Source: a virus
Taxonomy: Duplodnaviria > Heunggongvirae > Uroviricota > Caudoviricetes
Length of the DNA stretch: 9,500 bases
Strand: one strand, 5' to 3'
Virus record (IMG/VR): IMGVR_UViG_2648501498_000020
Positions 346-9,500 of this stretch are shown in pieces. Every line of letters begins with the position of its first letter. Position 1 is the stretch's first letter. Both the position numbers and the translations under genes were made by a program. The notes under the pieces were generated by a model that was not told where the DNA came from, made no database searches, and saw only the letters and a program-made list of their open reading frames with translations.

Positions 346-430
346 TTATATTCCTTCAATATTCATTTAAATGTCGGGTTCTCTCTACTGATATAAATTA
401 CAATTAAAATCATTGGTAGGGAAGCGCGCA

Positions 431-449
431 GTGCTTTCCCCGCCTCGCC
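431..449. other. cos site: P2/P4-type 19-nt cohesive-end sequence
   Basis: Plus strand reads GTGCTTTCCCCGCCTCGCC, the exact reverse complement of GGCGAGGCGGGGAAAGCAC, which I recall as the P2/P4 cohesive end. GC-rich hairpins follow at 450-520. Confidence 0.75.
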
Positions 450-550
450 CGCCCGCTTTGCGGGGCGGTTTCAATGCAGTTGCACTGACACGCTCAGGCC
501 GCGCCGGGAATGGCGCGGTCTGCAGAAAATGAGGCAGGAAAACGCATGCA

Positions 551-583
551 AAGCCATGCACCTTATCGATGCATGGCTTTTTT
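551..583. terminator. terminator-like hairpin between psu and cos
   Basis: Perfect 10-bp stem AAGCCATGCA (551-560) / TGCATGGCTT (570-579) with 9-nt loop, followed by a T-run on the plus strand (578-583); on the minus strand the hairpin is followed by GCATGCGTTTT. Lies just downstream of the psu stop, so it probably ends the sid-delta-psu transcript and may act bidirectionally. Confidence 0.45.
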
Positions 584-612
584 CAGTAAAACGGGCGGAT
601 TTTCGGGGAATT

Positions 613-1185
613 TTACACAGACTGATGTGATTCCAGTTGCGCACTTTTACGCGAAAAAATCATGTTCTGCGCAGGGGTGAATTTTTCACGGCTGTCATCC
701 ACCGAAGCCGCGTCAGGCCTGAATCCGATGGTCGTTAAAATGTCACTATCCTGTGCGGAATAATTAATTTTTTCCCCCTTCGCAAGCCAGGACAGAAGGG
801 CTTCACGCAGGGCATCTGTGGCACGCTGTATGGCACAGTTTCGGGCAATGGCCGTCAGCTCACTGTATCCCATCAGCTCCGGTGCCAGTGCCGCCGCCAG
901 TGCTGTGCCGTGCTGCTGCATAAAATCATTCAGCCGGTCGCGGATGCTGATGTGCTGAACGGCTTCATGCGAACGAATATAACGACCGGCGGCCTGATTC
1001 ACCTGCCATTTTCTGACTTCGATAATATTGCGTAATTCGTCCAGGCGACTGACGTTTCTGCCTTCCCCGGACAGAAGCCGCAGATATTCCTGTTCGGCCG
1101 CAGCCAGCTCATTTTTGCGTTGCAGCCATGCTGCTTTGTTATTCTGACAGGTGTCAAAGGCCTGCTGTAAGGCTGTGCTCTCCAT
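613..1185 (-). CDS. psu: Psu, polarity suppression protein (Rho antagonist / capsid decoration), P4-type
   Basis: 190-aa ORF recognised as P4 Psu; length matches my recollection. GAGAAAGAGA purine-rich SD upstream of the ATG. Last gene of the minus-strand late operon. Confidence 0.9.
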   Translation of the reverse strand: MESTALQQAFDTCQNNKAAWLQRKNELAAAEQEYLRLLSGEGRNVSRLDELRNIIEVRKWQVNQAAGRYIRSHEAVQHISIRDRLNDFMQQHGTALAAALAPELMGYSELTAIARNCAIQRATDALREALLSWLAKGEKINYSAQDSDILTTIGFRPDAASVDDSREKFTPAQNMIFSRKSAQLESHQSV

Positions 1186-1258
1186 CGTTATCTCTTTCTC
1201 ATCATGCTGAAGAATAAAAATACGGTGTGCGGCGACGGCCGGGGTTAACCGGCAGCCC

Positions 1259-1759
1259 TCATTCCAGACGCAGCGAATATGATTGTGTTTTTAACCGTAC
1301 TGGCGGCAGTTCCTGTTTTTCATGCAGGCGTTCTGCCAGTTCGTCCGGCGTGACCGGGCGGACAATGAAGCGGGTGATGGTCTGAAGCGTTTTAAACACC
1401 AGACCACAGCCCGGATCCGTGCACACATAAAAACGCTCGGTGACTTCCTGAGACAGACGCCGCGATGTTCTTGACAGTGCAAGGCCTTTACATCTCCGAC
1501 AACAATATCCGGTAACAAGCATTCTTTTCGGGCGTTTCATACTGCCGGAGGCTGACGTCAGTGAATCGCGGTATCTCTGTTTGCCTGAAATGTATTCCAT
1601 TCCTGAATCTTTACTGTCAGAGAAAAAGCTTTCACTCGCTTCAAATGTCGCAGAGCAATAAATATTCCGGCACTGTGCAATCATTATCTTGGTGCCATCG
1701 TCCATGAAATGTGCGCGACGAGTGTGAGCAACATGTCCACACGACGGGCAGTAAATCAT
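1259..1759 (-). CDS. delta: Delta, late-gene transcriptional activator (tandem Ogr-like zinc finger)
   Basis: 166 aa with two Cys4 modules (CPSCGH...CRNIYC and CCRRC...CTDPGC), consistent with a duplicated Ogr-type zinc finger as in P4 Delta. Start ATG overlaps the sid stop (ATGA). Confidence 0.9.
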   Translation of the reverse strand: MIYCPSCGHVAHTRRAHFMDDGTKIMIAQCRNIYCSATFEASESFFSDSKDSGMEYISGKQRYRDSLTSASGSMKRPKRMLVTGYCCRRCKGLALSRTSRRLSQEVTERFYVCTDPGCGLVFKTLQTITRFIVRPVTPDELAERLHEKQELPPVRLKTQSYSLRLE

Positions 1760-2490
1760 GACAGCAGTCCTCTGGCCTTAAGCTCTGCACCCTGCTGGTC
1801 TATTTTGTCCTGCCACACCTTGCGCTGTGCCGGTGTGCCTGCCACCTCATAATCCATGTGCGGGAGTGTTGCCGCTGACAGCCCGGTCAGCCGGAGAACC
1901 GGCTCGCCGGTGAGGCTGATTTGCATCTGTTTAATTTTCTGTTCCAGCGATGATTTCACCTGCTGCATGACAGCCTTTTCCGGTGCGACGTAGCCCTGAT
2001 GGCCGGTGGTGTTGGCGAGCGGATTTTCCTGTACCAGAATGCTCAGATGCATTGCCCGGACAAGCGCCTCACAGGTTTCATTCAGGGCGTGTTCCAGCTC
2101 ATGCTCTGCATACAGACTCAGAAGGTGATGATGTGCCTTCCGGTAGGCGGTGGCCGTGCTGTCACACGCCCCTTTCAGGCGTTCGCGTTCAAAATTCAGC
2201 ACCACGGCCAGATTGTCATATTCCTGTACCAGCTCCCGGCGTGCCACGCGCTCAATGTGGCGCTGTTTCAGCTCGTCGCTCAGGACACCACCGGCTGCAC
2301 GAAAGGCCGTGCGCCAGTCGTCAGCGTCGTTTCCGTCGGCCTGCGCCAGCGCATTTTTTTCCTGCTCTGCCCGTTCAATGGCCGTGACGGTCTCATCCAT
2401 CAGGCGGGCGTTCTCAAGATGGGCGGCTCTGGCCTTTTCCAGTTGTGCCAGCGCGGGTTGCAGATATTCAGGGATGGTGTTGTCAGACAT
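1756..2490 (-). CDS. sid: Sid, external scaffold / capsid size determination protein
   Basis: ORF track begins at a GTG (2508), but the ATG at 2490-2488 has AGGAG 8 nt upstream and gives 244 aa, the P4 Sid length I recall. Coiled-coil-like, Ala/Glu/Leu/Gln-rich sequence. Confidence 0.85.
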   Translation of the reverse strand: MSDNTIPEYLQPALAQLEKARAAHLENARLMDETVTAIERAEQEKNALAQADGNDADDWRTAFRAAGGVLSDELKQRHIERVARRELVQEYDNLAVVLNFERERLKGACDSTATAYRKAHHHLLSLYAEHELEHALNETCEALVRAMHLSILVQENPLANTTGHQGYVAPEKAVMQQVKSSLEQKIKQMQISLTGEPVLRLTGLSAATLPHMDYEVAGTPAQRKVWQDKIDQQGAELKARGLLS

Positions 2491-2562
2491 TTTCCGGCTC
2501 CTCGTCACTTCAGGTTAAGAAAATTGTGACGTACACCGGACAACAACACGACGCATTGCAGA

Positions 2563-2580
2563 TGTGCCAGCCCTGACACA
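2563..2580 (-). promoter_or_regulatory. candidate Delta/Ogr activator site (TGT-N12-ACA) for Psid
   Basis: TGTGCCAGCCCTGACACA fits the TGT-N12-ACA dyad of P2/P4 late promoters. Its centre is about 55 bp upstream of a predicted minus-strand start near 2516, leaving a ~26-nt leader before the sid ATG. Low-information motif. Confidence 0.3.
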
Positions 2581-2659
2581 GGAGACTCATCCTCAGACCG
2601 GCAAGCCAGGAAAAGGTCGCAGGAAAAACCGGCTTACTGTTTGTTTTTTTATATTTTAC

Positions 2660-2763
2660 TGTTCACCTCTGTTCACCTTAATAAAAAAGATAAGTAATAC
2701 AGTAAATTAAATGGTGAACAATCGCAGTAATGACTGTTCACCGTCTGTTCACCACTGTTCACC
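2660..2763. repeat. ori-like iteron cluster: six copies of octamer TGTTCACC (five direct, one inverted)
   Basis: TGTTCACC at 2660, 2670, 2735, 2746, 2756 and inverted GGTGAACA at 2713; an 80-bp stretch of >80% A+T follows (2770-2850). Same octamer recurs in crr (7494-7796). I recall P4 ori as holding six such alpha-binding iterons about 4.5 kb from crr; the spacing here is about 4.9 kb. Confidence 0.7.
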
Positions 2764-2922
2764 CGTTCATGGACTTTTTGTGCTGTTTATTACTTTTTAT
2801 TTTTATTAATTAACTGAAATAAATAAGAAAAAAACAATTTGTATTTCACTATAATTTTTTCCAGCTCCTTCCAGAGCGTTTTAAAGCTATCTGGCGTTGA
2901 TGTGCAAAAAACACACAGCAAT

Positions 2923-2940
2923 TGTAAGGCTGCCGGAACA
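2923..2940 (+). promoter_or_regulatory. candidate Delta/Ogr activator site (TGT-N12-ACA) for the late leftward promoter PLL upstream of vis
   Basis: TGTAAGGCTGCCGGAACA; centre about 110 bp upstream of the vis ATG. A start near 2986 would lie about 400 bp upstream of the PLE-like promoter, as I recall for P4. Confidence 0.3.
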
Positions 2941-3042
2941 AATCCCCCCTGTTGCGTCTGCTGAAAATATTCACAAAATAAAGCGCTACCCGAAGCCGGA
3001 CGGACTTATCCGGTGCTGTATGGACATTAACGAGGTAGCCCG

Positions 3043-3309
3043 ATGCAAGCTGTTTTTTCTTCCCCGTCTCCCGCCCCTGTGACGCCACTGATGCCGCTGC
3101 CGGACATCACGCAGGAGCGTTTTTTACGTCTGCCGGAAGTGATGCACCTGTGCGGCCTGTCACGCTCGACCATCTATGAACTCATCCGTAAGGGGGAATT
3201 TCCGCCGCAGGTGAGTCTTGGCGGTAAAAATGTGGCCTGGCTGCACTCTGAAGTCACTGCATGGATGGCCGGGCGCATTGCCGGACGCAAACGGGGGTAC
3301 GACGCATGA
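3043..3309 (+). CDS. vis: Vis, AlpA-family small DNA-binding regulator / excision directionality factor
   Basis: 88-aa ORF; GAGG SD 5-6 nt upstream of the ATG at 3043. [28 protein letters not shown] is a typical AlpA/Xis-type helix-turn-helix. Stop TGA 3307-3309 overlaps a downstream ATG (ATGA). Confidence 0.8.
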
Positions 3310-3905
3310 TGATGCCCGCTCTGCAAAAACTCCCTTTTTCTGGCTTGCCTTTTTCCGGCATTTGCGGATATAGTTTTTCCGCTGCCGCAAAATCGGCAGC
3401 CGGGCGTGAGAACCCGAGCAATCTAACGGCGACATATGACGCGCCATGCGTCTTTTTTTGTGTCGCAATCAACGCCACAGAGCGCCAGATTATGGTGTGG
3501 TGTGTGGTCAGTCGTGCAGATGGCATTCCGTGCATCCTGCCCGCGTCCGCTCATTATGCCGCAGAGTCAATGGTAGCTCAGGCGGGGCAGCCTCCGGGCT
3601 GGCCGGTATCCGTTAGAGCCGGTATTCTCACCCCCGTCTGGGCTATCGCCATCGAGCGTGAGAACTCCGGCGATAGCGTAACCTGCTATCTAACGGAGGC
3701 TGCCATCATGGCTACAACCCTTACCCCCTCACACCCTGAATTTGTCTTTGTGTTTGCGGCTGTCCGTCGCGCAGACCGTCATCCTCGTATCTGTATGCTT
3801 CGCACCGTCGCCGGTGATGAACGCAGCGCCCGCCGTTCCCTTGTCCGTGACTATGTGCTCTCCCTTGCTGCCCGTCTGCCGGTGGTGGAGGTGTCCCGTG
3901 CGTAA
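3306..3905 (+). CDS. long ORF (199 codons from ATGATGATG) spanning the immunity leader; possibly translated only on read-through from vis
   Basis: ORF track gives 3261..3905 (214 aa); the ATG at 3306 overlaps the vis stop (ATGA) and gives 199 codons. It runs across seqA, cI and seqC, and its start lies upstream of the PLE-like promoter, so PLE transcripts could not encode all of it. Coding status uncertain. Confidence 0.35.
3345..3374 (+). promoter_or_regulatory. candidate sigma70 promoter (PLE-like): TTGCCT -N18- TATAGT
   Basis: -35 TTGCCT (3345-3350) and -10 TATAGT (3369-3374), giving a predicted start near 3381, just upstream of seqA. Sequence inspection only. Confidence 0.4.
3406..3429 (+). 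promoter_or_regulatory. seqA: leader target complementary to cI RNA
   Basis: GTGAGAA...TCTAACGG; both blocks are exact reverse complements of the CCGTTAGA and TTCTCAC blocks at 3610-3631. Confidence 0.5.
3560..3650 (+). ncRNA. cI: cI immunity RNA region (approximate bounds) containing seqB
   Basis: seqB CCGTTAGAGCCGGTATTCTCAC (3610-3631) is complementary in two blocks to seqA (3406-3429) and seqC (3658-3696), with GC-rich hairpins around it (CAGCC-TCCG-GGCTG). Matches the P4 arrangement as I recall it. Ends not determinable from sequence. Confidence 0.5.
3658..3696 (+). promoter_or_regulatory. seqC: second target complementary to cI RNA, overlapping the kil ribosome-binding site
   Basis: GTGAGAA (3658-3664) ... 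TCTAACGG (3689-3696); the 3' block overlaps GGAGG (3695-3699), the SD of the ATG at 3708. Confidence 0.5.
3708..3905 (+). CDS. kil: Kil-like small protein (65 aa; in-frame internal start of the long ORF, eta possibly nested)
   Basis: ATG 3708 preceded by GGAGG (3695-3699) at 8-nt spacing; [65 protein letters not shown]. First start codon with a strong SD downstream of the cI region. kil/eta naming is from memory of the P4 literature. Confidence 0.5.
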
Positions 3906-4185
3906 TAAAAAAGCCCCTCAGACCGTCTCAGCACGTCATGACGCCCGTGAACACCTCAGCATTGAGGCTTACCATAAGCTCAACCGCGCCAGCGCCGTAT
4001 CCCGGTTTGTTGGGGGTGATTTGATTCACCGTGAACTCTCCGGTCTGCATCAGCTCTACATTCCGCATATTTTCAGCTACCTGAATGAAGATATTGATTT
4101 TGTGCTGAATGAGCTGAAAGCCAAAGGCCTGTGCCGCGATTTTCTCGCCCAGCAGAAAGACCGGGGAGACAGGACGCATGTTTGA
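3898..4185 (+). CDS. epsilon: Epsilon, anti-repressor of helper prophage (derepression of P2-like helper)
   Basis: GTG start at 3898 with GGAGG 8 nt upstream, overlapping the kil stop; gives 95 aa, the length I recall for P4 Epsilon. The ORF-track version (3742..4185) has an implausible N-terminal extension overlapping kil. Confidence 0.7.
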
Positions 4186-4633
4186 TTTTCCCCAGCCCGG
4201 TGAGATTTACCGTTCTGCCGGTTTTCCCGATGTGGCCGTGGTCGGCATTCTGGAAGACGGTATTCCGTGGGAAATGCCGTACCGCTGCCCGGACATTGTC
4301 TGGAATCCGTACCGCCGTAAATTCAGTATCCTTGTGCGTATCCTCGCTGACGGGCGCACCACAGACATCCCGCTGGGGCGTTTTCTGCGGGAATTTACCT
4401 GTGACCGTCCTGACCTGTTCAAACGCAGCCCCGTAAACCGGCATGCGGTACTGAAAGAAATGGCCGGAGACCCGGAATTACAGAAATGGCGGGAAAAATA
4501 TCTGGATATTTACCCGCAGGACCCTGTTCCGGTCAGCCGGGCAGCACCGGTAGCGCGGGAATGGCGGGAAATTCCCCGCACGGAGCCTGACCCGGAAACC
4601 ACCCCGGATAACAGTTACCGCAATTATCTGTAA
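4178..4633 (+). CDS. hypothetical protein, P4 orf151-like
   Basis: 151-aa ORF; start overlaps the epsilon stop; GGGGAGACAGG SD-like sequence upstream. Same size and position as P4 orf151. Confidence 0.8.
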   Translation: MFDFPQPGEIYRSAGFPDVAVVGILEDGIPWEMPYRCPDIVWNPYRRKFSILVRILADGRTTDIPLGRFLREFTCDRPDLFKRSPVNRHAVLKEMAGDPELQKWREKYLDIYPQDPVPVSRAAPVAREWREIPRTEPDPETTPDNSYRNYL

Positions 4634-4768
4634 TTAAAAAACGACACCCGAAAAATTAAATGTGCGTATTCGCGCAGGGATACGCACGTCTTCAGGAGAC
4701 GCAGATATGCCTTATCAGTTAATGCAACCGGCACGGAATGCAGTCATCTGTCACAGGGAGGAAAGCAA

Positions 4769-5089
4769 ATGAAAACACCCTTACCGCCCGTCTTACGCGC
4801 TGCCCTTTACCGTCGCGCTGTCGCCTGTGCCTGGCTGACCGTGTGCGAACGTCAGCACCGCTACCCGCATCTCACCCTTGAGTCACTGGAGGCGGCCATC
4901 GCCGCTGAGCTGGAAGGCTTTTATCTGCGCCAGCACGGTGAGGAAAAAGGGCGTCAGATAGCCTGTGCCCTGCTGGAAGATTTAATGGAATCCGGCCCCC
5001 TGAAGGCCGCGCCGTCGCTGTCCTTTCTCGGGCTGGTTGTGATGGATGAACTCTGTGCCCGTCACATAAAAGCGCCGGTACTGCACTGA
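4769..5089 (+). CDS. hypothetical protein, P4 orf106-like
   Basis: 106-aa ORF with GGGAGG SD 7-8 nt upstream; sits immediately upstream of alpha. Function unknown. Confidence 0.75.
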
Positions 5090-5103
5090 AGGAGAACAAC
5101 ACC

Positions 5104-5976
5104 ATGAAAATGAACGTAACCGCCACCGTCAGCCATGCACTCGGCCACTGGCCGCGTATTCTCCCGGCGCTGGGGATTCAGGTGCTGAAAAACCGTCATC
5201 AGCCCTGTCCGGTCTGTGGCGGGAGTGACCGCTTCCGTTTTGATGACAGGGAGGGGCGCGGCACCTGGTACTGCAATCAGTGTGGTGCCGGTGACGGCCT
5301 GAAACTGGTTGAAAAGGTGTTTGGTGTTTCCCCGTCCGACGCGGCCGCAAAGGTGGCTGCCGTGACCGGCAGCCTGCCCCCGGCTGACCCGGCAGTGACG
5401 GCCGCCGCCGGTGCTGAAACAGAAGCCGCCCGGAAGAACGCCGCCGCACTGGCACAAACCCTGATGGCGAAAACCCGTCCCGGAACCGGTAACGCCTACC
5501 TGACCCGCAAGGGCTTTCCCGGCCGGGAATGCCGGATGCTGACCGGCACACACAGAGCCGGTGGCGTGAGCTGGCGTGCCGGTGACCTTGTGGTGCCACT
5601 GTATGACGACAGCGGCGAACTGGTTAACCTTCAGTTAATCAGTGCTGACGGCCGTAAGCGCACCCTGAAAGGCGGACAGGTCAGGGGCACCTGTCACATC
5701 CTTGAAGGACAGAATCAGGCCGGAAAACGTCTGTGGATAGCGGAGGGATACGCGACCGCACTTACCGTGCATCACCTGACCGGTGAAACGGTGATGGTGG
5801 CGCTTTCTTCCGTGAACCTCCTTTCTCTGGCCAGCCTTGCCCGGCAGAAGCATCCGGCCTGTCAGATTGTCCTTGCCGCAGACCGTGACCTCAGCGGTGA
5901 CGGCCAGAAAAAAGCCGCCGCAGCCGCAGATGCGTGTGAAGGTGTTGTTGCCCTGCCGCCGGTCTTCGGTGACTGA
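5104..5976 (+). CDS. alpha: Alpha N-terminal fragment: zinc-binding + TOPRIM primase domain (ends at in-frame TGA)
   Basis: AGGAGA SD 8 nt upstream; CPVCGGSDRFRFDD...WYCNQCG zinc-binding motif and EGYATALT primase motif. Ends ...PVFGD then TGA at 5974-5976. Confidence 0.85.
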   Translation: MKMNVTATVSHALGHWPRILPALGIQVLKNRHQPCPVCGGSDRFRFDDREGRGTWYCNQCGAGDGLKLVEKVFGVSPSDAAAKVAAVTGSLPPADPAVTAAAGAETEAARKNAAALAQTLMAKTRPGTGNAYLTRKGFPGRECRMLTGTHRAGGVSWRAGDLVVPLYDDSGELVNLQLISADGRKRTLKGGQVRGTCHILEGQNQAGKRLWIAEGYATALTVHHLTGETVMVALSSVNLLSLASLARQKHPACQIVLAADRDLSGDGQKKAAAAADACEGVVALPPVFGD

Positions 5977-6066
5977 AATGATGCCTTCACGCAGTACGGC
6001 GGGGAAGCCACCCGTAAGGCCATTTACGATGCCATCCGGCCACCGGCTGAAAGCCCGTTCGATACC

Positions 6067-7437
6067 ATGAGCGAAGCGGAGTTTTCCGCCATGAGTACCA
6101 GCGAAAAGGCCATGCGTATCTATGAGCATTACGGCGAGGCGCTCGCGGTCGATGCCAACGGCCAGCTTCTGTCCCGCTATGAAAATGGTGTCTGGAAGGT
6201 GCTGCCGCCACAGGACTTTGCCCGGGATGTGGCCGGGCTGTTTCAGCGTCTGCGCGCGCCGTTCTCCTCCGGGAAGGTGGCCTCCGTGGTGGACACCCTG
6301 AAGCTGATTATTCCGCAGCAGGAAGCCCCCTCCCGCCGCCTGATTGGCTTTCGTAACGGCGTGCTCGACACGCAGAGCGGCACGTTCCACCCGCACAGTC
6401 CGTCACACTGGATGCGCACCCTGTGCGATGTGGATTTCACCCCACCGGTGGAAGGGGAAACGCTGGAAACCCACGCCCCCGCGTTCTGGCGCTGGCTTGA
6501 CCGTGCCGCCGGTGGCCGTGCGGAAAAACGCGACGTGATTCTGGCCGCACTGTTTATGGTGCTGGCAAACCGCTACGACTGGCAGCTCTTTCTGGAGGTG
6601 ACCGGTCCCGGCGGCAGCGGCAAAAGTATCATGGCCGAAATAGCCACCCTGCTGGCCGGGGAGGATAACGCCACGTCGGCCACCATCGAGACGCTGGAAT
6701 CCCCGCGTGAACGTGCCGCGTTAACTGGCTTCTCACTGATACGCCTGCCGGACCAGGAAAAATGGAGCGGCGACGGAGCCGGACTCAAGGCCATCACCGG
6801 CGGCGATGCGGTGTCCGTTGACCCGAAATACCGGGATGCGTACTCCACGCACATCCCGGCGGTGATTCTGGCCGTGAACAATAACCCGATGCGCTTCACC
6901 GACCGCAGCGGCGGCGTGTCACGCCGGCGGGTGATTATTCACTTCCCGGAACAGATAGCCCCGCAGGAGCGCGACCCGCAGCTTAAGGACAAAATCACCC
7001 GCGAGCTGGCGGTCATCGTGCGTCACCTGATGCAGAAATTCAGCGACCCGATGCTCGCCCGGTCACTGCTTCAGTCCCAGCAGAACTCAGACGAGGCGCT
7101 GAACATCAAACGGGATGCCGACCCGACGTTTGATTTTATCGGCTATCTGGAAACCCTGCCGCAGACCAGCGGCATGTATATGGGGAACGCCAGTATCATC
7201 CCGCGTAATTACCGTAAATACCTCTATCACGCCTATCTGGCCTACATGGAGGCAAACGGCTACCGGAATGTACTCAGTCTGAAAATGTTCGGGCTGGGGC
7301 TACCGGTGATGCTGAAGGAATACGGACTGAATTACGAGAAGCGCCATACCAAACAGGGGATACAGACCAACCTGACACTGAAAGAGGAAAGCTACGGCGA
7401 CTGGCTGCCAAAATGTGACGACCCTGCGACAACCTGA
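6067..7437 (+). CDS. alpha: Alpha C-terminal fragment: D5/SF3-type helicase (Walker A GPGGSGKS) plus C-terminal DNA-binding region
   Basis: Same reading frame as 5104..5976; 30 stop-free sense codons lie between the TGA and the ATG at 6067. Walker A GPGGSGKS, Walker-B-like VILAVNN. No convincing SD before 6067. Confidence 0.8.
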   Translation: MSEAEFSAMSTSEKAMRIYEHYGEALAVDANGQLLSRYENGVWKVLPPQDFARDVAGLFQRLRAPFSSGKVASVVDTLKLIIPQQEAPSRRLIGFRNGVLDTQSGTFHPHSPSHWMRTLCDVDFTPPVEGETLETHAPAFWRWLDRAAGGRAEKRDVILAALFMVLANRYDWQLFLEVTGPGGSGKSIMAEIATLLAGEDNATSATIETLESPRERAALTGFSLIRLPDQEKWSGDGAGLKAITGGDAVSVDPKYRDAYSTHIPAVILAVNNNPMRFTDRSGGVSRRRVIIHFPEQIAPQERDPQLKDKITRELAVIVRHLMQKFSDPMLARSLLQSQQNSDEALNIKRDADPTFDFIGYLETLPQTSGMYMGNASIIPRNYRKYLYHAYLAYMEANGYRNVLSLKMFGLGLPVMLKEYGLNYEKRHTKQGIQTNLTLKEESYGDWLPKCDDPATT

Positions 7438-7453
7438 CCATCATGACTCATCT

Positions 7454-7478
7454 GACCGGCATCTGCCGGTCTTTTTTT
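7454..7478 (+). terminator. intrinsic terminator downstream of alpha
   Basis: GACCGGC-ATCT-GCCGGTC hairpin followed by TTTTTTT, 17 nt after the alpha stop. Confidence 0.7.
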
Positions 7479-7493
7479 ATCCCGACATCCCCC

Positions 7494-7796
7494 GAAGGTG
7501 AACAATCTACTGTTCACCCTTCACCGTATATTCACCCGTTATCACACTGAAATTAAAAGAGAAAAACGAAAGGTGAACAGTGTGAACAATCAAATCAAAA
7601 AAAACTTTTTTCTCCCTGTGTGATTTTCAGTACGGGGGATTAATCACCGGTATGAGTCACACCAGCAGAATGCCGGAGGTGAAGAATCGAATGTTCACCC
7701 TTCACCCATTATTCACCACCTATCATACTGAAATAAAAGGAGAAAAAAGAAAGGTGAACAGTGTGAACAGTTCTTTCGAAAAAAAATTTTTTTCCT
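7494..7796. repeat. crr (cis replication region): two ~120-bp direct repeats about 181 bp apart, each with TGTTCACC / GGTGAACA iterons
   Basis: Repeat 1 about 7494-7615, repeat 2 about 7675-7796 (GAAGGTGAACAATCTACTGTTCACCCTTCACC... vs GGAGGTGAAGAATCGAATGTTCACCCTTCACC...; both end AAAGGTGAACAGTGTGAACA + A/T run). Matches my recollection of P4 crr as two 120-bp direct repeats separated by 60 bp. Confidence 0.75.
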
Positions 7797-7939
7797 GTAC
7801 GATATAGCATCAATCCAAGTAAAAATGCGCTTTAATTTCACATTAACTTACAGCCATTGGTATACAATTAGGTATACGCACAAAAACTGAATTAAACAAA
7901 ATCGTTAAAAATCAAAGCAATATAATATTTATTCAAACT

Positions 7940-7962
7940 CCGCCAGCCCACCAAAATTCTCC
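7940..7962 (+). other. possible att core: CCA-terminated motif resembling the 3' end of a tRNA/tmRNA
   Basis: ATTCAAACTCCGCCAGCCCACCA has a TTCAAA T-loop-like segment, an acceptor-like segment and a terminal CCA, about 210 bp upstream of the int start. No full tRNA can be folded: upstream sequence is AT-rich. Speculative. Confidence 0.25.
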
Positions 7963-7999
7963 ATCGGTGATTACCAGAGTCATCCGATGAAGTCCTAAG

Positions 8000-8047
8000 A
8001 GCCCGCACGGCGCAAGCCCGCACGGCGCAAGCCCTGCGGGCTTTTTT
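8000..8047 (+). terminator. tandem 15-bp repeat (AGCCCGCACGGCGCA x2) forming a GC-rich hairpin followed by TTTTTT
   Basis: Two exact tandem copies at 8000-8014 and 8015-8029; stem GCCCGCA (8016-8022) / TGCGGGC (8035-8041) then T-run 8042-8047. On the plus strand, between the CCA motif and int. Confidence 0.45.
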
Positions 8048-8101
8048 GTGCCTTGAATTTGTCCCGCGAAGTCTGATGCCAACTAATTAAATCCGAACCT
8101 T

Positions 8102-8154
8102 TTAGGCACCTTGTTAGGCACCTCATAAAGCTTTATTGTTTTTGAGGTGCCTAA
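8102..8154. promoter_or_regulatory. three copies of 10-mer TTAGGCACCT (two direct, one inverted) upstream of int: candidate Int arm-type / autoregulatory sites
   Basis: TTAGGCACCT at 8102-8111 and 8114-8123; exact reverse complement AGGTGCCTAA at 8145-8154, ending 19 bp before the int ATG (8173). Confidence 0.45.
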
Positions 8155-8172
8155 AACTATGGAAACCCGGCA

Positions 8173-8229
8173 ATGGCAAGACAAACCAAACCTCTATCCG
8201 TTAAAGAAATCGAATCTGCTAAACCCAAG
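8173..8229 (+). pseudogene. int: tyrosine integrase (P4/CP4-57-like), N-terminal ~19 codons only, interrupted by IS insertion
   Basis: MARQTKPLSVKEIESAKPK resembles the conserved N-terminus of P4-family integrases. After codon 19 the frame reads [22 protein letters not shown], which belongs to the IS terminus. Junction placed at about 8229/8230 where the IS-like TGT begins; exact base uncertain. Confidence 0.6.

Positions 8230-9500
<1,271 letters not shown>

Follow-up and report, generated by a model that had tools for sequence, protein, structure and literature searches.

The window analyzed here, a 9,500-nucleotide stretch of viral DNA, contains a P4-type cis replication region (crr) followed by a CCA-ended motif, a terminator, a set of short repeats, and the start of an integrase gene, and this arrangement raises the question of whether the sequence between crr and int is one attachment site or is composed of parts with different origins. 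The sequence-only reading had taken it for a single functional attP (or attL) of a P4-like element with its own int downstream, i.e., a site that would rebuild the 3' end of the tmRNA along with its terminator upon integration. Comparison with homologous loci showed that window positions 424-9500 share 98.1% identity with part of the E. coli Z1323HEC0423 chromosome (locus L001), and 7793-8229 is in all likelihood a composite recombination junction, the seam between two mobile elements that are stacked in an EPEC-like E. coli at ssrA, the gene for tmRNA. On the basis of sequence comparison, the attR of a P4-like satellite prophage (left half) has very probably been fused with a remnant of the attL of the EspC island (right half) to give a tandem array at ssrA. 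The context of this array was taken from 98%-identical loci; ssrA and the satellite int lie outside the 9.5-kb window. The type of structure is already known, and the region adds one more case in which a displaced piece of ssrA adjoins what is left of an attL. The annotation is corrected from an attP to the attR of an ssrA-specific P4-like satellite plus an EspC attL remnant, and the practical value is modest.

Anatomy of the junction and of the satellite prophage

The features of the locus are collected in Table 1. The anatomy of the region, its homologies, and the architecture that recurs across species are direct observations.

Table 1. Features of the proposed composite junction and of the adjoining prophage and island sequences (positions in the window)
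Feature	Coordinates	Strand	Remarks
vis/ORF88, AlpA-family excisionase	3043..3309	+	corresponds to P4p11, "excisionase and transcriptional regulator"; AlpA family in L001
P4 crr (cis replication region, two 120-bp repeats)	7492..7792	+	internal repeat 7492-7612 / 7673-7792
AT-rich P arm of the satellite att site	7793..7930	+	no P4 homology
Predicted P-arm arm-type Int-binding dimer ATTGGTATACaaTTAGGTATAC (ATTGGTATAC/TTAGGTATAC), period 12	7856..7877	+	53 bp before core
Core fragment ATTCAAACTCCGCCAGCCCACCA	7931..7953	+	mimic of ssrA nt 341-363, T-loop to CCA
CCACCA	7948..7953	+	only block common to attL and attR right of position 357
ssrA 3' trailer hairpin, IntA-type island P' arm	7959..7992	+	fold; identical after intact ssrA in E2348/69 and K-12
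Predicted Rho-independent terminator	7997..8047	+	stem 7997-8045, T-run 8042-8047
Exact tandem 15-mer AGCCCGCACGGCGCA	8000..8029	+	copies 8000-8014 and 8015-8029; bounded by 5-bp microhomology AGCCC
Predicted P' arm-type dimer TTAGGCACCTtgTTAGGCACCT, period 12	8102..8123	+	TTAGGCACCT copies 8102-8111 and 8114-8123, both exact
Inverted third TTAGGCACCT copy, exact	8145..8154	-	19 bp before int ATG
int' stub, first 18 codons (MARQTKPLSVKEIESAKPK...), IntA(CP4-57)-type tyrosine integrase	8174..8229	+	56 nt, ATG at 8174
IS100 (IS21 family), in int	8230..9500	-	99.2% identical to Yersinia pestis IS100; istB 8296-8958, istA start

Window positions 450-7792 are 97.7% identical to P4 (11624-4291) and comprise the homologues of psu, delta, sid, vis/ORF88, cI, epsilon, alpha, and crr. 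This homology ends exactly at the outer edge of crr, which is annotated at 4291-4590 in P4; because crr is the last P4-homologous stretch, the swap of the att/int module starts at 7793. The satellite would have kept the replication and capsid-size genes of P4 and carry an int/att module specific for ssrA, and it provides an example of P4-like satellites swapping these modules exactly at the crr boundary. The P arm that begins there (7793-7930) was found at the right end of P4-like prophages in three E. coli loci (L001, L005, and L006), and a search of the phage collection with 7800-7953 gave no match.

In alpha, which encodes the primase-helicase, the codon at 5974-5976 is changed from TGG to TGA (W291*) relative to P4 and L001, with no indels, so that the gene is split into open reading frames at 5104-5976 and 6067-7437. 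The satellite prophage is probably replication-defective, and it may be inert because of this premature stop. Positions 1-423 of the window are AT-rich, possess no long open reading frame, and match neither P4 nor L001 (the homology to L001 begins at 424); this segment falls in the int-to-cos region, a variable cargo site of P4-like elements.

Positions 7793-7953 would form the attR of the satellite, consisting of the AT-rich P arm, a dimer with a 12-bp period, and the core. Positions 7954-8229 would represent the former attL of an older CP4-57-like island, namely the EspC island, of which the ssrA trailer hairpin, the terminator, the TTAGGCACCT dimer with its inverted copy, which would overlap the int promoter region, and an int start destroyed by IS100 would remain. 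The IS100 insertion is the same in L001 and in EPEC E2348/69. The remainder of int is found beyond IS100 in L001, as a pseudogene, and an intact homologue of the stub gene in strain E47 is 85% identical to K-12 IntA. The stub was considered as the satellite's own int and was rejected; it belongs to the IntA-type gene of the older EspC island, and the satellite int is located elsewhere, as seen in L001.

Putative arm-type repeats, trailer, and terminator

Three exact copies of the 10-mer TTAGGCACCT are present, as the sequence-only reading had proposed, but they are not all direct: two are direct and the third is inverted. The claimed spacing between the last copy and the int start codon was confirmed. 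By chance, 0.41 matches to TTAGGCACCT with at most one mismatch are expected per window. In our scan of about 60 loci for dimers with a 12-bp period, such dimers preceded the core at -73 to -77 and followed it at +112 to +135; as a rule, the one that follows was accompanied by an inverted copy about 43 bp further on. The repeats in these loci were of the GGTATAC, GGACCAA, TAGGCACC, TAGGCCCA, and GGTACAC types, and they travel with the int types. Dimers with a 12-bp period at fixed distances offer a simple means of telling which integrase type an arm site belongs to. All GGTATAC-type loci have the ATTGGTATACaaTTAGGTATAC dimer at -73, and other loci have the TTAGGCACCT dimer at +132/+133 after the core. 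The window possesses both features expected of an att site in this respect, a tandem arm dimer about 50 bp upstream of the core (at the same 53 bp as in P4) and, on the way from the core to int, a second tandem dimer with an inverted copy. Its P' dimer starts 148 bp after the core, compared to 133 bp in relatives that lack the 15-mer duplication.

The sequence TTAGGCACC was found on both sides, as the P' dimer in the window and, in at least 13 species, as a P-arm dimer at -75/-76. Arm-type Int sites would be expected to show this distribution, and TTAGGCACCT appears to behave as such a site across Enterobacterales. By their sequence types, the P-arm repeats ATTGGTATAC/TTAGGTATAC and the right-side TTAGGCACCT repeats belong to two different integrases. 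The TTAGGCACCT sites would now be orphans, because their Int is dead and the partner arm is absent.

Alternatively, the TTAGGCACCT copies could serve first of all as operators of the int promoter, mediating Int autorepression or AlpA/Vis-type control, and not as arm sites for recombination. Their distance to the int ATG is 19-72 bp, and the Int of P4 is described as repressing its own gene from comparable positions, by binding to DNA near the int transcription start (PMC2951348, citing Piazzolla 2006). A primarily regulatory role is possible and yet rather doubtful, in that the TTAGGCACCT dimer is also present on the opposite side of cores, at -75/-76 and far from int starts, in at least 13 species, and the promoter scan revealed no sigma-70 consensus here. 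The arm-site and operator roles are compatible and not mutually exclusive; by analogy to P4, the P' sites likely have a dual role in recombination and autoregulation.

Upstream of these repeats, the GC-rich hairpin and T-run of the terminator were predicted to fold with -30 kcal/mol for 7990-8050. The terminator sequence also follows intact ssrA in E2348/69 and K-12 and is the one supplied to ssrA by IntA-type islands; the satellite P' arm has its own homologous trailer and terminator. Judging from these loci, 7997-8047 served ssrA before the satellite inserted, and the prophage now separates the two. The sequence-only reading had described two tandem 15-mers folding into a terminator, and the pair is indeed an exact tandem within a hairpin that is followed by a T-run ending at 8047. 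The tandem cannot be regarded as a designed feature, however. AGCCCGCACGGCGCA is present as a single copy in L001, L002, K-12, and E2348/69, and a 48-nt query over the duplication junction was covered across that junction in none of 5,426 complete E. coli genomes; the duplication is private to this sequence. The duplicated sequence still folds, with the first copy paired in the predicted structure. The AGCCC bounds would fit replication slippage, with no designed role.

We also considered whether the junction encodes a small RNA similar to Salmonella IsrM that would extend from the satellite P arm to the terminator at 8047. The predicted terminator is strong, and the Rfam IsrM model (RF02763) matches the 3' hairpin with 26.1 bits (E = 3e-5). 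This score is well short of the gathering score of 376 that applies over the whole model, only the terminator aligns, the scan of 7400-8300 revealed no promoter-like (sigma-70-like) site, and the terminator is fully accounted for as the former ssrA terminator; we regard such an RNA as improbable. The model aligns with 8000-8047 through its terminal hairpin only, which suggests that IsrM itself ends at a terminator of the ssrA type, located in the arm of an IntA-type island.

The core fragment and the probable tandem array at ssrA

The core copies the T-loop-to-CCA end of the tmRNA gene, as expected for an att site and analogous to the leuX segment that forms the P4 core. When aligned with the 3' end of ssrA (the intact E. 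coli gene ends ...GGGTTCAACTCCCGCCAGCTCCACCA), ATTCAAACTCCGCCAGCCCACCA matched in 21 of 25 aligned columns with three 1-nt indels: the T-loop has an additional A, the T-stem is short of one C, and U357 is deleted. The CCA-ended motif noted from the sequence alone therefore exists, although it is located at 7931-7953 and not, 9 nt away, at 7940-7962. Its proposed identity as the T-loop-to-CCA end of a tRNA or tmRNA was borne out by the alignment with ssrA, as was the suspicion that it does not derive from leuX; with ssrA as the source, the specificity must be other than that of P4. The idea that the site rebuilds the 3' end of its target holds for the terminator, which IntA-type islands supply to ssrA, but not for the delta-U357 core, which is no functional end. 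Because the acceptor strand is one nucleotide short, 7931-7953 cannot be a working tmRNA 3' end. ARAGORN detected no tRNA or tmRNA gene in the window and Rfam none in 7500-8300 even at E ≤ 10, in keeping with the lack of a functional gene of either kind; the fragment is too short and too degenerate for these programs, so it was identified by locus comparison instead. The partial ssrA 3' end with delta-U357 (CGCCAGC-CCACCA) lies at the int-distal end of the element, as expected of a displaced fragment, and this form has already been tabulated for P4-integrase islands at ssrA (PMC10107115, Table 1).

Three collections were scanned for the core by using the pattern TTCA(A/G)ACTCCGCCAGC(N)CCACCA. 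The IMG/VR viral contigs (A-variant pattern only) yielded 13 loci, 12 of them with delta-T; the set with one genome per species yielded 49 Enterobacterales loci (delta-T in 48/49) plus three unrelated chance matches; and the metagenome contigs (pattern extended by CTT) yielded nine loci, eight with delta-T. The core 22-mer was present in 49 Enterobacterales species representatives. In the loci scanned, the satellite-linked sequence stops at CCACCA and more than 25 different sequences begin immediately after it, which argues that the core is conserved and linked to the element rather than a decayed bacterial remnant. Free attP sites (a P-type core with its cognate P' arm) were absent from the IMG/VR and metagenome scans, in which only integrated junctions with non-cognate arms were seen.

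Two other origins of the deviations were examined and rejected. Decay of the core after integration does not explain the three indels, which are common to K-12 CP4-57 and 48 other species. Acquisition of delta-T from the bacterial or older-island side (B') was excluded as a general cause, as delta-T persists over more than 25 downstream contexts. A minority of P-type cores (ATTCAAACTCCGCCAGCTCCACCA) retain the T, as observed at 14243-14255 of L005, at 1815-1838 of L009, and in L060 and L076; therefore, the element side shows some variation between T and delta-T at position 357. An enterobacterial P-type core with an arm dimer was also found in two short non-enterobacterial contigs, one from Martelella alba (L051, 662 bp) and one from Streptomyces sp. 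(L061, 1151 bp), which are probably assembly contamination.

The order of genes in L001 is smpB, ssrA, the integrase WP_024225803, the P4-like prophage, the CCA-ended fragment, int'::IS100, and the espC island. The ATTGGTATACaaTTAGGTATAC dimer (GGTATAC type) recurs there, 111 bp downstream of the CCA end of the real ssrA; an inverted pair follows it, and directly behind lies the satellite int, whose product is 63% identical to IntA. The attL of this locus runs from ...CAGCTCCACCA (also written ...TTCAACTCCCGCCAGCTCCACCA) into CTTGCTC, and its attR from ...ATTCAAACTCCGCCAGCCCACCA (...CAGC-CCACCA) into AAATTCTCC. Intact ssrA and the int of the element were present at the other end of the element in L001, L005, L006, and L011. 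EPEC E2348/69, which is without the satellite, has an intact ssrA and then directly the sequence of window 7954 onward, with its terminator, TTAGGCACCT set, and int'::IS100. From the ssrA 3' end onward, this strain and window 7936-9500 share 96.7% identity. According to passages of the review PMC7545054, which refers to Mellies 2001, the EspC island of EPEC is inserted at ssrA. The ssrA-proximal end of that island in E2348/69 is the same as the right half of the window in its terminator, TTAGGCACCT repeats, and int'::IS100, with the difference that it abuts intact ssrA, whereas the window has the P4-like satellite in between. No partner P arm for TTAGGCACCT was detected within 36 kb of E2348/69, and the EspC island is therefore without a recognizable attR. 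The window provides an example of newcomer elements displacing older islands and their terminators from ssrA.

Further variants of stacking at ssrA were seen in strains E47 and Z1323PEC0014, and many junctions (L021-L072) combine non-cognate P and P' types, indicating that tandem arrays at ssrA are common. In E. coli E47 (L005, 1-5204), an anti-phage dCTP deaminase gene lies between the integrase of a P2-like prophage and the satellite int, and the satellite of this strain has a SIR2-family gene after int; these genes look like defence cargo of the ssrA array.

With these loci at hand, the interpretation of the region as one functional attP with its own int is very unlikely. In its favor, crr, att, and int follow one another as in free P4, the core is derived from the tmRNA, and the terminator and repeats are placed as expected. 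A P4-type att site has one repeat type on both arms and one adjacent intact integrase; here the P-arm repeats are GGTATAC and the P'-arm repeats TTAGGCACCT, and the adjacent int is an 18-codon stub. A GGTATAC P arm facing a TTAGGCACCT P' arm means that the region joins halves of two different att sites, served by two integrases. Furthermore, the 98%-identical locus places the satellite int and the matching GGTATAC P' repeats beside the real ssrA, so the region is not one attP; strains that lack the satellite have the same downstream block after ssrA; and a core copy without U357 would not rebuild a working tmRNA. That the tmRNA-end likeness and the repeats are mere chance features of an AT-rich intergenic region, a notion with no support beyond the shortness of the motifs, is practically inconceivable given the contiguous homology from the ssrA 3' end onward, the core in 49 species with dimers at fixed distance, and a 10-mer count above expectation.

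Proposed excision at ssrA and comparison with known systems

For the composite junction, we propose that the satellite Int, which would be encoded beside the real ssrA outside the window, binds the GGTATAC dimers via its N-terminal arm-binding domain. Together with Vis, the expected directionality factor for recombination of attL with attR, it would recombine the attL beside ssrA with the attR at 7856-7953. If excision proceeded as it does for CP4-57 and CP4So, the body of ssrA would become linked to 7942-8047, and the resulting tmRNA would lack U357, be inactive, and end at the terminator at 8047. When CP4-57 and CP4So excise, delta-U357 is transferred to ssrA and the tmRNA becomes inactive (PMC10107115 and PMC5148205); published demonstrations of attL by attR excision concern these two elements only. 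The delta-U357 core predicts that satellite excision could inactivate the tmRNA in an EPEC background. Laboratory strain DTU-1 carries a full ssrA with delta-T357 and the native downstream sequence, i.e., the CP4-57 excision scar, and 12 natural E. coli genomes possess a second, long, genuine ssrA fragment with delta-T next to native downstream sequence. The latter pattern is as expected if a scarred ssrA was later re-occupied or repaired by another element.

The comparative junctions and the published excision products point to different places of strand exchange. In the junctions, linkage changes after CCACCA. The excision products and DTU-1 carry delta-U357, which implies exchange of at least one strand 5' of 357, in the shared 8-bp CCGCCAGC. 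We speculate that an overlap region spanning 357 would reconcile the two; the products would then be heteroduplexes whose strands separate at replication, and a working attL would be selected for.

Because the three indels are kept in 48 of the 49 species representatives and are always linked to the P arm, irrespective of what follows CCACCA, one can entertain the thought that the delta-U357 core is not a decayed leftover but a "poison" version of the tmRNA 3' end that the element carries and selection maintains, although we consider this unlikely. The linkage to the P arm and the delta-U357 of published excision products would both fit an exchange spanning 357, with heteroduplex products. If true, part of the progeny would lose trans-translation upon induction of the satellite, and the core might serve for addiction or as a regulatory switch coupled to the mobilization of the satellite.

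The composite junction has clear counterparts among known systems. Tandem islands, as reportedly described by Williams in 2003, regenerate the target gene, leave a displaced fragment to mark the far end, and stack at ssrA; the window exhibits no essential difference from that picture. The closest relative of its right half is CP4-57 of K-12, in which the sequence after ssrA is nearly identical to window 7954-8050 (trailer and terminator) and TTAGGCCCA/ATAGGCCCA plus an inverted copy precede intA at positions equal to those of the window's repeats. The CP4-57 attR core AATTCAGACTCCGCCAGCCCACCA also has all three deviations from ssrA that are found in the window, including delta-U357. The window differs from CP4-57 in that its IntA-type int is disrupted by IS100, its arm repeats are TTAGGCACCT, its core comes from a different element (the P4-like satellite with GGTATAC arms), and it alone has the private 15-bp duplication in the terminator. 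P4 attP (NC_001609, in the layout of Pierson and Kahn) resembles the window in its overall plan: directly after crr, two tandem 12-bp "arm sequence repeats" stand 53 bp before a 20-bp core that is the leuX T-loop-to-CCA segment, much as the window core copies the end of its target gene, and about 112 bp beyond that core come two more repeats in tandem, with an inverted copy at the int start. The differences are that P4 targets leuX and the satellite ssrA, the P4 repeats are of the TGGGGGCA type, the two Int proteins are only 36% identical, and the arms in the window stem from two different elements.
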